DNA of 64,000 bases from a phage. Made by a program: the position numbers and the translations under genes. The notes below the pieces were generated by a model. The model was not told the origin of the DNA. It worked only from the letters and a program-made list of their open reading frames with translations, and did not search any database. This document shows, one piece after another, positions 10,308-14,652 of the stretch. Within the stretch, counting starts at the first letter, position 1. Each line of letters opens with the position of its first letter. Location: NCBI GenBank assembly GCA_029220445.1, contig GCA_029220445.1_3666.1. One strand, written 5' to 3'.

Positions 10308-10781
10308 TTAGTCAACCTGAACCCAACCATCTGCTGCCTTTTTAAACATTCTTTGGTTATCACTACCTCTGAAGGGTTTTTTGGTGGGGTTATCTTTTTC
10401 GTACTTACCATCCATAATGTAATCGACACTATCTTTAATGTAATCGGGAACCTCTTCAAACAAATACCCTGTGTACACCCAGATAGTTTTTGTGTTGCCG
10501 AAGTGTTCACGGATAGCGCGAATGATCGAGTACATACCATCAATATTGTAAGGCGCTAAAGGTTCGCCACCGCATAATGTAACGCCAGTAATGTGTTTCG
10601 GCTCTATAGAGTGAAGTATGCTCTCAATAGTGTCATTTGTTAACGGTTCCCCTTTAGCTGGTGACCAAACACTTTTGTTTTGGCAACCGACGCAGTGATG
10701 TGGGCAACCAGAACAGAACACCGTTGTCCTAATGCCTGGGCCGTCAACCATGCTACACTCTATAATATTAACAACATTCAT
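10308..10781 (-). CDS. nrdG: anaerobic ribonucleotide reductase activating protein (radical SAM)
   Basis: N-terminal Cys cluster VFCSGCPHHCVGC typical of NrdG activases; sits next to nrdD. Confidence 0.85.
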   Translation of the reverse strand: MNVVNIIECSMVDGPGIRTTVFCSGCPHHCVGCQNKSVWSPAKGEPLTNDTIESILHSIEPKHITGVTLCGGEPLAPYNIDGMYSIIRAIREHFGNTKTIWVYTGYLFEEVPDYIKDSVDYIMDGKYEKDNPTKKPFRGSDNQRMFKKAADGWVQVD

Positions 10782-11014
10782 TCCTTATCCTCTTTTAGGT
10801 AAGGATATTCAGGCCCACAATAAGCTCTATCCAAGAAAACAGCTTCTTCCCCTCTGGAATCAGTAGATCTATAATACCCATCACCATGGTAACTAACGAA
10901 CCAGTGGCACCCATCATCGCTTTCTACTGTTGTGGCTCTGTCCGAATGAAAGATAATTTCGTAATCCTTACCGAATGTAAACCATCTGTTAGCTTTTACA
11001 CAGACACCTATCAT
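10778..11014 (-). CDS. hypothetical protein
   Basis: 78-aa ORF overlapping nrdG start by 4 nt. Confidence 0.4.
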   Translation of the reverse strand: MIGVCVKANRWFTFGKDYEIIFHSDRATTVESDDGCHWFVSYHGDGYYRSTDSRGEEAVFLDRAYCGPEYPYLKEDKE

Positions 11015-11165
11015 AAGGAACCTCTCTTCTGTGATGTGCTTCTATTCAAGATAAACCTATAAAAGTCCATTTGATGAAGCCGTATAACTTTTTATACTTA
11101 CGCTTCAGTGCTAACAATTTTATCTTGATTTTCTTGATAGATTTCCGCATTTCGACCCCTTATGC

Positions 11166-11282
11166 TTATAAGTACTCCGCATCGCATTCAGGGCAATGAC
11201 AAATAAAATCGTCCAGTGCCTTGCACCAACGAAGATTGCAACGACAACCACACTTGCAAATTTTATAAATACCTGATGACAT
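11166..11282 (-). CDS. 38-aa cysteine-rich small ORF (possible zinc-binding peptide)
   Basis: ATG at 11282 preceded by GGAGGTG; MSSGIYKICKCGCRCNLRWCKALDDFICHCPECDAEYL has 8 Cys and 1 His; below the 60-aa track cutoff. Confidence 0.3.
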   Translation of the reverse strand: MSSGIYKICKCGCRCNLRWCKALDDFICHCPECDAEYL

Positions 11283-11334
11283 ACTGCACCTCCTTAGTTA
11301 ATAGCATGTTTAAGATATGCATATCTTTCTACAA

Positions 11335-12462
11335 TCATTTACCACAAATCTTCTTGTATACCTCTTCTACCGTGTCAAACACTTCAGGCCTGTAGTAGAA
11401 AAACTCAGTGCTACCGTCAAATTTTACAGGAAAGTTTATTTTATACTTGCTGAAGGCCTTATGCACAGATTTTTCTAAATCTGCCATGTTTTGAGTTGAT
11501 CCTTCCCACGTTTTCGCCAGGTAGAGATCATAAATACCTGCCCCTGCCCTTTTGGCACTTTTCAATATCCTATCTTTTCTCTCTTCGACACTGACGCTAA
11601 TACCGATCTTCATAAGTGTTGGTACTTCTAAGTCATCAACCATAATGTAAAGTTTGCCGTGATTGTACGATAAAAAGCCGTAGTTAGCACATCTAGGGCA
11701 CCCATGTCCTTGCTTGAGCCTAATAGGAGCAGGAGACCATTCATAATCACAAATCTTACATCTACATAATACTTTTGCACTACCGTTTTTAATTTTTCCA
11801 AGCACTTTAATACTTGGATTGACAACCTTTATATGCCCTACCCATTCCACATGGGATCTCTTTGCATTGCCTTTACATCTAGGACACCCATGCCCTCGTT
11901 TAAGATGGGATGGTCTTGCTAGCCATTCATGACTGCAAATTTTGCATCGTGCCAATACTGGTGTATCGCTATTTTTAACTCTTTCTACTATTTCAATATA
12001 TGTATTTTTCTTCGTTATGTCCTCGACCCACTCGGTATGGGCTATAGCTCTGCTTTGTGCGAATTTTAGCTTGCCGCATCTAGGGCACCCATGTCCTTGT
12101 TTAAGAAGATAAGGCATTGCTGACCATTCATGACTGCAAATTTTGCAGCGGCACGGCACTTTTGTTCTGCAGCTTATTATTTCTCCAATCACTTCGACAT
12201 AAGGATTGACCTCTTGGATAACATTCAACCACTCCTTGTGTGGTATAATGTGGCTTTGTGCCATTTTTAGCTTTCCACATTCCCGGCAGCCTCGTCCTGC
12301 AAGGTGTTGGTGGGTAGCTTGTTCAAATTCTCCATGATATGGGCAGATAATTATAACCTTGGTGCAGGCATTTACATACTCAACCTTAGAGTAATCATAC
12401 TTATCTCCATGAACTGCTTTTGCCTTCTTTATAAACTCATCTGTTGTAAGTTTTCTGGACAC
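11335..12462 (-). CDS. free-standing putative homing endonuclease: three zinc-ribbon repeats plus C-terminal GIY-YIG/T5orf172-like domain
   Basis: three repeats of CxICxHEW...KxGHGCPRC; C-terminal LYIMVDD...KIGIS...ERKDRI resembles a GIY-YIG core; inserted between nrdG and nrdD. Confidence 0.6.
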   Translation of the reverse strand: MSRKLTTDEFIKKAKAVHGDKYDYSKVEYVNACTKVIIICPYHGEFEQATHQHLAGRGCRECGKLKMAQSHIIPHKEWLNVIQEVNPYVEVIGEIISCRTKVPCRCKICSHEWSAMPYLLKQGHGCPRCGKLKFAQSRAIAHTEWVEDITKKNTYIEIVERVKNSDTPVLARCKICSHEWLARPSHLKRGHGCPRCKGNAKRSHVEWVGHIKVVNPSIKVLGKIKNGSAKVLCRCKICDYEWSPAPIRLKQGHGCPRCANYGFLSYNHGKLYIMVDDLEVPTLMKIGISVSVEERKDRILKSAKRAGAGIYDLYLAKTWEGSTQNMADLEKSVHKAFSKYKINFPVKFDGSTEFFYYRPEVFDTVEEVYKKICGK

Positions 12463-12528
12463 TGCTGAACCTTCTTAGCTCTAATCTTTGAACTAAGTGT
12501 GCCACATCCTTGTGGCTTTTGTCAAGTA

Positions 12529-14652
12529 TCAGCAACCACAACTTCCGTAGTGCTTAACCCGTTCTATAACTTCCGCTTGCTTACCTTTATTGTAAGGACG
12601 GGAGTTAGGACTGGAAAGGTATCCAGACACTCTTCGGATCACTGAGATATATTGTTCATCGTGGCATCCGCACGCAGGGCAGCAGAACCCTTTAGCTGTT
12701 GCACTGAACTCACCAGAGAAACCACACTTGAGACATTTATCCACAGGTTGGTTAATACCAAAATACATAATGTGTTTATACCCGAAGTCAACAAGAGCCT
12801 CTAAAGCATCAAGGTTGTTTTTCAGGTTAGGTGTCTCTACGTATCCGATGTTGCCACCGGAGGAGATCATAGCAAAACCTTCCTCATACTCCCACTTATC
12901 AAAAGGAGAGCTATTGATCCATACTGGCTGATGGAAACTGTTGGTGAGATATTCATGCTCGTGCTTTAACACTTCTGGATATTCACGATCCAGACAGGTT
13001 GCAGCTTTATAGCATAGACTCTCAGAAGGAGTGCCGTACAAGCTAAATGCTAGTCTACTTTCCTTCTTGTATCGCTCACAAGCATCTCTCATGTGCTGAA
13101 GGATTCCAAGAGCTAAAGCCTTGTCACCTTCTCTGCCCAAAATCTGACAGGTTTCATACACACCAATGTACCCAATGCTGATGGAAGCGTACCCGTCATA
13201 GAAGAGTTTATCAATACTCTCTTCAGGGTCCAGGCGAGCAAGAGCGCCTTCACACCACATGATAGGGTTCTGCCCTGCCTTTGTCCCTTTTAGACGATTA
13301 ACCCTTACAAGGTGAGCCTCGTATGCAAGATCCAGGTATTCGTCAAGAACTGCAAAGAAATCAACACCTTCCGTTTTAGCTTTTGCCGCAATCATTGGCA
13401 GGTTAAGGCTAACAACGCCTAAGTTAAATCTGCCAAGGTATTTCTCCTCGCCTGTTTCCAAGTCATTGTATTTGCTAAGAAAACTCCGGCAACCCATGCT
13501 CGTTACTTTACCATCTGTCGAGCCTGTCACTTTACGATTTAGTGGAACAGAAACAAAGTCAGGATAAATCCGCTCTGCAGAGCATTCCAGAGCTAATCGT
13601 TTCAAATCATAGTTAGGATCTCCAGGGTTCATGTTGACACCCTCTTCTAGGAAGAACAACACTTTAGGGAACACAGGTGTGATACGTTCTTCACCAAGAC
13701 CCATTTTGTGGACTTTCAAGTAGTTTTTGGTAATCATTCTACCAAAGACTGAGGTGTCCAGACCTAAACTTAATGTGATGAATGGGGTTTGCCCGTTGAC
13801 AGAAGTTAACGTATTGATTTGATAGAGCAAAGTCTGCATGCTGTCAAATACGTCTTTATCTGTCATCTGCATTGCAACAGTCTCAGCATCTGGCAACCAA
13901 TGTTCCTGGCAAAATTTAAGGTTCTTCTCATAAGTCGCCTCAGCATACTGTGCCAGATAATGATCAATATGGCTCATAGTCTGACCCCCATATTGAGCAC
14001 TAGCTACCGCACTAGAGATTTGGCTAAGGATTGTTGTTGCAACCCCTATTGACTTCGGCTTACTGACATGGGCGTTACCAATGTTGAATCCGTTTTCCAA
14101 CATATCTGGATAATTTACCAAACAACAGTTTGTTAACGGACTGATCAAGTAGTCAAGATCATGCACATGGATGAAGCCTTTATTGTGCTCTTCTGAGACA
14201 CGGTCTGGCAGGATCTGTGTTGATGCAAGGTGTTTGCTAAGGATGCCTGCAAGCAGGTCACGATGAGTGTGTACATGATTGGTAGGCTTATTTGCGTTTT
14301 CTTTTGTAAATTCATCACAAGTTCGATCCAAGAAGCCACTAATATCTGCAAGCAGTTTTCCACCTGCCTCTCTGTTATTATCTCTTGTCTGTCTATACTG
14401 GATGTATTCTCTGGCTGCACATTTTAAACCCATATCCATAAGAGCATCTTCAACAAGGATATGGATATTTTTTACAGAGATCGTGCACTGGTCGGTTGGT
14501 AGATTGTTAGCAACAACTTCATTAACCGCACAAGCGATCCGGTAAGCTTCTTCTTCAGTATGTCCAGACTCAAGTAAGGCGGACTCTGCCGCCTTGATCA
14601 CCTTAATTCCGTTATAGACCTCTTCTCTACCGTCCCGTTTTACAACTTTCAC
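12529..14652 (-). CDS. nrdD: anaerobic ribonucleoside-triphosphate reductase (class III)
   Basis: C-terminal CxxC zinc site and glycyl-radical motif RVSGYL; 707 aa. Confidence 0.9.
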   Translation of the reverse strand: MKVVKRDGREEVYNGIKVIKAAESALLESGHTEEEAYRIACAVNEVVANNLPTDQCTISVKNIHILVEDALMDMGLKCAAREYIQYRQTRDNNREAGGKLLADISGFLDRTCDEFTKENANKPTNHVHTHRDLLAGILSKHLASTQILPDRVSEEHNKGFIHVHDLDYLISPLTNCCLVNYPDMLENGFNIGNAHVSKPKSIGVATTILSQISSAVASAQYGGQTMSHIDHYLAQYAEATYEKNLKFCQEHWLPDAETVAMQMTDKDVFDSMQTLLYQINTLTSVNGQTPFITLSLGLDTSVFGRMITKNYLKVHKMGLGEERITPVFPKVLFFLEEGVNMNPGDPNYDLKRLALECSAERIYPDFVSVPLNRKVTGSTDGKVTSMGCRSFLSKYNDLETGEEKYLGRFNLGVVSLNLPMIAAKAKTEGVDFFAVLDEYLDLAYEAHLVRVNRLKGTKAGQNPIMWCEGALARLDPEESIDKLFYDGYASISIGYIGVYETCQILGREGDKALALGILQHMRDACERYKKESRLAFSLYGTPSESLCYKAATCLDREYPEVLKHEHEYLTNSFHQPVWINSSPFDKWEYEEGFAMISSGGNIGYVETPNLKNNLDALEALVDFGYKHIMYFGINQPVDKCLKCGFSGEFSATAKGFCCPACGCHDEQYISVIRRVSGYLSSPNSRPYNKGKQAEVIERVKHYGSCGC

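Follow-up and report, generated by a model that had tools for sequence, protein, structure and literature searches.

What is a cysteine-rich open reading frame (ORF) of only 38 codons doing between the genes for the anaerobic (class III) ribonucleotide reductase (RNR) NrdD and its activase NrdG, and is it a gene at all? The locus that raises this question lies on the minus strand of a 64,000-nucleotide stretch of phage DNA (contig GCA_029220445.1_3666.1 of the GenBank assembly GCA_029220445.1; hereafter the window). The window is that of an rV5-like Vequintavirus: the 801 nucleotides around the small ORF are 99.6% identical to the Escherichia phages inoa, naswa, naam, nomine and A51.2 and match 118 phage records, all of them rV5-like. 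An earlier reading of the window (the original prediction) had described an unannotated frame with eight Cys and one His, placed behind a strong Shine-Dalgarno sequence in the gap between a 78-residue ORF and a homing-endonuclease gene, and had suggested that it could encode a zinc-binding peptide with a regulatory or inhibitory role. The frame is indeed there on the minus strand, with the product exactly as quoted (MSSGIYKICKCGCRCNLRWCKALDDFICHCPECDAEYL); the ribosome-binding site is as strong as had been claimed, and the ORF listing bears out the setting (Table 1). Our analysis establishes the coding nature of this frame and points, with graded confidence, to the kind of protein that it encodes.

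A 38-codon gene under purifying selection

Thirty-eight codons taken alone could be a chance ORF, a reading that we dismiss because of the conservation of the frame. By tblastn, the peptide is present in 122 phage records, and 15 distinct variants of 36 to 54 residues were recovered. Nei-Gojobori counts over 28 alignable codons of 11 non-identical DNA copies give proportions of synonymous (pS) and nonsynonymous (pN) differences of 0.50 and 0.056, respectively (pN/pS 0.11), against ratios of 1.29 and 1.83 in the other two frames over the same DNA. The variable sites number 8, 2 and 19 at the first, second and third codon positions, and the Cys codons alternate between TGT and TGC without loss of the residue. 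At the protein level, C9, C11, G12, C13, C15, N16-L17-R18-W19 and C20 are invariant in all 15 variants, as are L23-D24-D25, I27, C30-P31, C33 and E36-Y37; these positions include the seven Cys and a core, NLRWC..LDD. The variants differ at their N-termini, some carry a Lys/Glu-rich extension, and the first Cys knuckle shows a one-residue insertion or deletion ('CK-CGC' versus 'CKHCGC' or 'CKDCGC'). Conservation of the frame and of the Cys spacing had been proposed as the check on the original prediction, and both are kept in close and distant relatives.

The translation signals are conserved along with the frame. A Shine-Dalgarno sequence (AGGAGG, AAGGAG, TAGGAG or GAGGA) lies 4-9 nucleotides 5' of the ATG in 11 of 11 relatives, and in seven of these the stop codon overlaps the start of nrdG or of a ligase gene. 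In the window, the ATG is the sole possible start, since an in-frame TAA lies five codons upstream with no alternative start codon between them. The small ORF is a genuine protein-coding gene under purifying selection.

The count of eight Cys and one His holds for the window copy but not for the family. Position 28 is Trp (TGG) in all database copies and Cys (TGT) only in the window; hence, the conserved set consists of seven Cys, and the best database match reaches 37 of 38 residues, with none 100% identical. Nor is His29 a conserved ligand, because it is replaced by Tyr in the L006, L037 and ACG-C91 types. Two aberrant forms were also encountered. In phage vB_Eco_Alma (P0002) a frameshift exchanges the terminal EYL for other residues and lengthens the ORF to 61 residues, and in a 1,473-nucleotide ENA contig (P0005) codons 1-20 are fused to the C-terminal 42 residues of the 78-residue ORF, through either a deletion or an assembly chimera. 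The two forms are either tolerated variants or sequencing errors.

Two genomic contexts

Essentially every Vequintavirus possesses the gene. With the last 199 residues of NrdD as query and a cut-off of at least 90% identity, rV5-type NrdD occurs in 119 phage records, which correspond to the genus, and the small ORF is found in 121 Vequintavirus-type records. None of the approximately 2,400 further phage records that encode NrdD at lower identity has it by tblastn, and in the Vequintavirinae lineages L004 and L005, whose NrdG is 82-84% identical, unrelated ORFs lie between nrdD and nrdG. No match was obtained among 5,426 complete E. coli genomes, and degenerate DNA patterns for the core gave 0 matches in 185,579 GTDB representative genomes. 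The same patterns recovered three IMG/VR loci and six metagenome (JGI/ENA) loci. Five of the six metagenome loci belong to vequintaviruses, and the sixth, in a GC-rich contig, matched by chance; otherwise, the pattern matches in these collections came only from Vequintavirus and ACG-C91 contigs. A word-index homologue search with the query and its five upstream in-frame codons returned five clusters, all of which hold this peptide, either intact or in frameshifted or fused form. An exhaustive hidden Markov model (HMM) search of 1.84 billion protein representatives yielded as distinct relatives only P0006 and P0007 (41 and 54 residues), together with P0005 as the truncated fusion product; P0008 and P0009 are repetitive proteins and were rejected as false positives of this search. 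A single 'plasmid' match (CP057073.1 in PLSDB, E. coli, 137.5 kb) carries the locus and is evidently a phage genome. Further, in the unannotated 'Campylobacter phage' records MG065644, MG065690 and 16 others (135-143 kb), identity to E. coli vequintaviruses over this region reaches 99.6%. The probable causes, for these records and the 'plasmid', are a wrong host label or the assembly of a phage genome as a plasmid.

Within the vequintaviruses, the gene sits in two arrangements. In FV3, SophiaRose, L006, L027/L028, L035 and L037 it ends in ...TTATGA, with the ATG serving as the nrdG start, an overlap also seen in L023 and L024. In the rV5 type, to which the window belongs, a block of two ORFs, lacking in the former genomes, intervenes between the small ORF and nrdG. 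Between the two arrangements, the nrdG alleles share only 51-52% identity, with similarity in the C-terminal ~22 residues, whereas the core of the small ORF is 86-96% identical across them and the last 147 residues of NrdD are 84-100% identical. Therefore, the small ORF is inherited together with the nrdD 3' end, and a mosaic boundary lies at its stop codon. It keeps its place whether an endonuclease gene has been inserted upstream, the two-ORF block lies downstream, or the nrdG allele is the 51%-identical one.

The second context is provided by the SP6-like podovirus vB_EcoP_ACG-C91 (Autographiviridae, Vectrevirus, 43.7 kb), the only non-Vequintavirus record with the gene, and by four metagenomic contigs similar to it. 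The ACG-C91 ORF of 36 codons (MSVFKICKCGCRCNLRWCKALDDVIWYCPKCNTEYL; L022 3998-4108) is unannotated in JN986844 and differs from that of the window by 10 synonymous and 6 nonsynonymous changes. It starts one base past the stop of a gene that PHROG and RefSeq name as a gp1.7-like nucleotide kinase (DUF3310; phrog_1689, E 1e-43), and its own stop overlaps the ATG of an ATP-dependent DNA ligase gene. The flanks of the two contexts have in common only eight nucleotides, ATGAATAT, at the start of the downstream gene. The gene has moved into ACG-C91 and the metagenomic contigs as an exact ORF cassette. In other Vectrevirus genomes the same slot, with the same one-base spacing to the kinase stop and the same overlap with the ligase ATG, holds two other tiny genes. 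That of K1E and UTI89UKE2 encodes a classical four-Cys (C4) zinc ribbon of 38 residues, and that of vB_EcoP_B a Cys-free protein of 57 residues. SP6-like phages are not known to carry any nrd genes.

A putative metal-stabilised module and its possible roles

What might the product be? The second Cys knuckle, C30-P-x-C33 (CPxC), is invariant in 15 of 15 variants, and the first is CxxC in five of these, giving the pattern CxxC-x18-CxxC, and CxC in the window copy and the other nine. Given seven invariant Cys in 36-54 residues, the invariant CPxC and the CxxC-x18-CxxC pattern of the variants, a zinc-ribbon-like reading is the most economical, and a metal-dependent mini-domain of this kind is plausible. 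Cys 13, 15 and 20 may provide a second, shared or bridged metal site; a binuclear site in which one Cys acts as the bridge might accommodate all seven thiolates. An AlphaFold model of a 53-residue variant predicts strands at 20-22/29-31 and 42-45/50-52, with both Cys knuckles in beta-hairpin turns, and the top Foldseek matches of this model are zinc-ribbon proteins (eL43, Pol I A12.2 and the TnpB zinc ribbon). The zinc-binding character suggested by the original prediction is hence plausible, given the invariant CPxC and the spacing that some variants have in common with the K1E ribbon, although no zinc-ribbon family model matches and the structure models are poor, as set out below.

The comparison with known small proteins is instructive in several directions. 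The K1E zinc ribbon resembles the ACG-C91 homologue of the small peptide in slot, overlaps, size and acidic C-terminus, and its CxxC-x18-CxxC spacing is that of the SophiaRose, L027 and L028 forms. It differs in having only four Cys and in matching generic zinc-ribbon Pfam models, though below their thresholds. It also has a sub-threshold match to the Lar-type restriction-alleviation model TIGR03655 (E 3.7e-4), whereas the small peptide matches no Lar model even at this level. Hence, the K1E protein is best treated as a positional and architectural analogue rather than a demonstrated homologue. Stand-alone C(P)xCG micro-proteins, such as the HVO_ families of Haloferax, are likewise tiny, with two Cys knuckles of which one is CPxC. 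The small peptide follows this two-knuckle plan, and its low-confidence model too consists of two beta-hairpins, but it has three extra invariant Cys, a CxC first knuckle in its commonest form and no model match. NrdD proteins have a C-terminal zinc ribbon, CxxC-x14-CxxC, which is the zinc site of T4 NrdD. Encoded next door to the small gene, this ribbon has CxxCG...CPxCG-style knuckles followed by an acidic and an aromatic residue, as does the small peptide, which departs from it in spacing, in having no glycyl-radical segment and in the insignificance of the alignment (BLASTP E 0.41). Finally, its W-x-C-P-x-C and Y-x-x-C-x-C-G motifs read like rubredoxin knuckles. The spacer between the knuckles of rubredoxin is ~29 residues; that of the small peptide is shorter, at 16-18. 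The small peptide is best classed as an uncharacterised member of the small Cys-rich metal-binding proteins of phages; it is not an RNR.

Two specific families were also considered. A CDGSH iron-sulfur domain, the only PDB sequence match (7w5z_FS, E 0.2), was rejected by its motif: the His ligand of its signature (C-x-C-x2-(S/T)-x3-P-x-C-D-G-(S/A/T)-H) falls on Asp24, and the one-residue insertion or deletion among the variants breaks the C9-to-C11 spacing. For rubredoxin, there is no Pfam or NCBIfam match.

On this basis, we lean, with slightly more confidence than doubt, towards the following as the best explanation: the small ORF is a genuine gene whose product is a metal-stabilised module with a partner that every infected E. 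coli cell can supply. The gene would belong to the Vequintavirus nucleotide-metabolism operon, in the order nrdA/B, grx, nrdD, small gene, nrdG. It would be translated from its own strong Shine-Dalgarno sequence and, in many relatives, be coupled to the next gene through the ATGA overlap. The product, a Cys-rich mini-domain of 36-54 residues, would depend on bound metal for its fold. Most probably, C9/C11 (CxxC in variants) and C30-P-x-C33 would be the two knuckles of a zinc-ribbon-like fold, and the domain could serve as a self-contained module that binds a host protein or a nucleic acid present whenever E. coli is infected. What the module targets and to what effect is a matter of speculation. 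A general host-cell partner is favoured over an obligate role with the phage RNR because the gene has been exchanged as an exact cassette and its slot is interchangeable with other tiny genes. Its universality in the genus and its exchange between myoviruses and SP6-like podoviruses as an exact cassette also make it a candidate host-directed or metabolism-tuning factor.

Several observations weigh against this explanation. The commonest form of the first knuckle is CxC and not CxxC. Neither the 38- nor the 41-residue form matches a zinc-ribbon or any other model of Pfam or NCBIfam at E values up to 1-10, the sole library match of the 54-residue form is to Cas12f TNB (E 0.36), and the PADLOC library has no match to the peptide. 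The AlphaFold models are of low confidence (predicted local distance difference test scores of 64 and 59 for the peptide of the window and the 53-residue variant, respectively). Foldseek against the PDB gives no match for the former model, and the zinc-ribbon matches of the latter, at E ~1, are not significant. By hhalign, no homology to the K1E zinc ribbon is seen outside the CPxC knuckle. The family has so few distinct members that comparative power is limited. Moreover, a role linked to the RNR would account equally well for the constant location of the gene between nrdD and nrdG in ~120 genomes.

That role is the most serious of the alternatives, though we regard it as improbable: the product would be an accessory factor of the phage class III RNR, a small iron or zinc protein made with NrdG that aids the activation or maintenance of NrdD/NrdG, for instance as a mini-rubredoxin-like donor to the [4Fe-4S] cluster of NrdG, a metal chaperone, or a stabiliser of the zinc ribbon or glycyl-radical domain of NrdD. 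It draws on the invariable location of the gene, which extends to the metagenomic relatives, on the overlap of its stop with the nrdG start in the FV3, SophiaRose, L006 and L027/L028 types, on its inheritance with the nrdD 3' block while NrdG diverges to 51%, and on the resemblance, in a reading of the sequence only, of W-x-C-P-x-C and Y-K-I-C-K-C-G to rubredoxin or zinc-ribbon knuckles. Against these stand the absence of the gene from the ~2,400 other nrdD/nrdG phage records and from L004 and L005, and its presence in Vectrevirus beside kinase and ligase genes with no RNR gene adjoining. In the Certrevirus CB7, nrdG and nrdD carry consecutive ORF numbers, leaving no small gene between them by that numbering (PMC7344957). 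The peptide has no significant similarity to NrdD, and no correlation was found between the small ORF and either the C-terminal tail of NrdD (...HYGSCGC) or the nrdG allele. Were such a role true, a well-studied enzyme system would gain a further component; the present evidence does not favour it. A bolder form of the same idea makes the peptide a third component of the anaerobic RNR, viz., a 4-kDa mini-rubredoxin with seven Cys and an iron- or zinc-thiolate centre that feeds NrdG or protects NrdD and is usable on the host NrdDG. As a portable component, it would act on the host enzyme in phages without an RNR of their own, but we consider it quite unlikely.

We give a similarly low rating to a nucleic-acid-binding zinc-finger protein that would regulate the neighbouring nucleotide-metabolism genes, at the level of transcription or translation, or mark a homing-endonuclease target. 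Zinc ribbons often bind nucleic acids, the N-terminal half of the peptide is basic (K7, K10, R14, R18, K21), the 53-54-residue variants add a Lys/Glu-rich tail, and the site is a hot spot for homing-endonuclease and other insertions and deletions. The net charge is nevertheless about zero, with an acidic C-terminal half, and the peptide matches no DNA-binding family. A cis target common to both contexts is also unlikely, because their flanks share only the eight nucleotides noted above.

A different kind of objection would have the small ORF be a passenger of something else, its conservation being due either to an overlapping frame or to an RNA element in the nrdD-nrdG interval, for example an attenuator or an intrinsic terminator. 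RefSeq rV5 (L001, NC_011041.1) annotates in another frame a 75-residue gp109 (2436-2663), which overlaps the 38-codon frame (L001 2501-2617) and whose equivalent in the window lies at 11120-11251 on the minus strand. Further, a weak terminator-like hairpin (11229-11213) overlaps codons 16-23, and phage Murica annotates a terminator over the small ORF, with no coding sequence (CDS). Yet, the pN/pS values of the alternative frames contradict this rival. In the window the endonuclease insertion cuts the gp109 frame to a 43-residue ORF with a GTG start, and gp109 matches no PHROG. The RNA of the small ORF folds no better than shuffled sequence (z = 0.22), and the hairpin has only three G-C pairs. 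We therefore view this objection as very improbable, and gp109 looks mis-annotated, given its pN/pS above 1, its want of a PHROG match, its truncated frame in the window and the conservation of the 38-codon frame. Least credible of all is a precursor peptide matured by the adjacent radical-SAM protein in the manner of SCIFF or ranthipeptides: a Cys-rich peptide of ~40 residues is encoded directly upstream of, and coupled to, a radical-SAM gene, but that neighbour is a standard 157-residue NrdG whose Pfam matches are Fer4_12 and Radical_SAM, with no SPASM/twitch domain, no SCIFF or other NCBIfam model matches the peptide, the genes called within ~4 kb on either side of the Vectrevirus copies include none of the radical-SAM family, and there is neither a leader/core organisation nor a transporter or protease gene nearby.

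Annotation of the locus and its neighbourhood

The gene had been taken as unannotated, which is true of the ORF track of the original prediction but not of the related GenBank records. The window peptide matches the PHROG 20137 profile over its whole length (E 1.3e-28, all 38 residues aligned to the 38 profile positions), as does a SophiaRose-type variant at E 4.2e-23; it belongs to the same family and differs by its unique W28C. CDSs of 38-41 residues are annotated at the same locus as bas51_0185 (WalterGehring), inoa_69 (inoa) and SOPHIAROSE_118 (SophiaRose), with products 87-97% identical to the window peptide. The small ORF is thus no overlooked gene, since its family was already catalogued. 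No CDS is annotated at its position in phages FV3, Murica, PDX and phiWec193/196. The family is filed under misleading labels, and we found no publication on the gene: searches of the literature on the locus tags, the PHROG identifier, Vequintavirus expression and small zinc-ribbon partners of the anaerobic RNR retrieved nothing relevant. PHROG 20137 and several records name it 'ribonucleotide reductase', and 'putative anaerobic ribonucleoside-triphosphate reductase' is also in use. Homology to the zinc ribbon of NrdD was rejected, as the BLASTP alignment to the NrdD of the window covers only the CPxC knuckle, with 5 of 12 identities. The peptide has no Pfam NRDD or Gly_radical match, and the NrdD of the window is complete without it. 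The name is unsupported and seems to have been taken from gene adjacency.

These points have practical weight. A micro-protein gene that falls below the size cut-off of many gene finders is universal in a genus widely considered for therapy. The rV5 reference carries the wrong frame, several genomes omit the gene or show a 'terminator' in its place, and the label 'ribonucleotide reductase' on PHROG 20137 and individual records could mislead automated function transfer.

Table 1. Features of the small-ORF locus in the window, and the two other tiny genes of the Vectrevirus slot
Feature	Coordinates	Strand	Remarks
38-residue Cys-rich CDS	11166..11282	minus	ATG at 11282; TAA stop at 11166-11168; PHROG 20137 member
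Shine-Dalgarno sequence AAGGAGGTG	11287..11295	minus	6 nucleotides from GGAGG core to ATG
Small-ORF codons 16-23 (NLRWCKAL)	11214..11237	minus	begin the most conserved core; invariant alignment columns
nrdD, class III (anaerobic) RNR	12529..14652	minus	annotated thus in relatives; upstream neighbour
Homing-endonuclease-like gene, 375 residues, free-standing	11335..12462	minus	Pfam DUF4379 3.2e-16, CapR 2.8e-12, T5orf172 5.5e-11
Two-ORF insert	10778..11150	minus	rV5-type genomes only; separates small ORF from nrdG
34-residue Lys-rich ORF MRKSIKKIKIKLLALKRKYKKLYGFIKWTFIGLS	11046-11150	minus	annotated in rV5 (gp110) and WalterGehring
78-residue ORF	10778-11014	minus	matches only phrog_3249 (function unknown); overlaps nrdG start
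nrdG, radical-SAM activase of NrdD, 157 residues	10308..10781	minus	Pfam Fer4_12 2e-38, Radical_SAM 3.5e-10
K1E/UTI89UKE2 slot protein, 38-residue classical C4 zinc ribbon MTCPNCGSEETEHVVMSDTYHFYFCHSCDTTIEEEEAV	L031 699-815		CxxC-x18-CxxC
vB_EcoP_B slot protein, Cys-free, 57 residues	L032 699-872		phrog_15259

On the minus strand of the window, nrdD is followed by the homing-endonuclease-like gene, the small ORF, the 34- and 78-residue ORFs and nrdG, with phoH further downstream. The nrdD gene is uninterrupted and retains its C-terminal zinc ribbon and glycyl-radical motif (...CLKCG...CPACG...RRVSGY...ERVKHYGSCGC). The endonuclease-like protein combines three treble-clef zinc-finger repeats of the DUF4379/CapR type with a T5orf172 domain, and its gene is absent from rV5, FV3 and others. 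In rV5, FV3 and L006 the small ORF begins 61-64 nucleotides past the nrdD stop, whereas the window, inoa, WalterGehring and SophiaRose have a homing-endonuclease-like gene in this spacer. Relative to rV5, homology stops 33 nucleotides past the nrdD stop and restarts 18 nucleotides before the small-ORF ATG, so that the insertion (11300-12499) replaces ~16 nucleotides of the 61-nucleotide rV5 spacer and leaves the Shine-Dalgarno sequence intact. Its left junction falls directly after a hairpin, GCCACA-AGGA-TGTGGC (12501-12516), which comes immediately after the nrdD stop and has been kept in both the window and rV5.

The endonuclease genes at this site differ between phages, encoding 330 residues in WalterGehring and 386 in SophiaRose (a 'GIY-YIG' protein), and nrdD itself is interrupted in relatives: FV3 has an HNH gene inside it, it is split into several ORFs in L006 and L028, and in WalterGehring a homing endonuclease separates the two pieces from which the CDS is joined. 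Mobile-element insertion has a hot spot in the nrd region.

On the other side of the small ORF, the 34-residue ORF has a Shine-Dalgarno-like AAGGGG six nucleotides 5' of its start, occurs only in genomes with the 78-residue insert and has no significant family match. The label 'putative minor capsid protein', which is in wide use for the 78-residue ORF, looks propagated, because this ORF sits inside a nucleotide-metabolism operon and overlaps the nrdG start. We infer co-transcription of the small ORF with its nucleotide-metabolism neighbours, as they have the same orientation and no strong promoter-like site lies directly upstream of it. Just 3' of nrdG, at 10304-10275 on the minus strand, is a perfect sigma-70 consensus promoter (TTGACA, 18 nucleotides, TATAAT), which corresponds to the annotated P118 of rV5.

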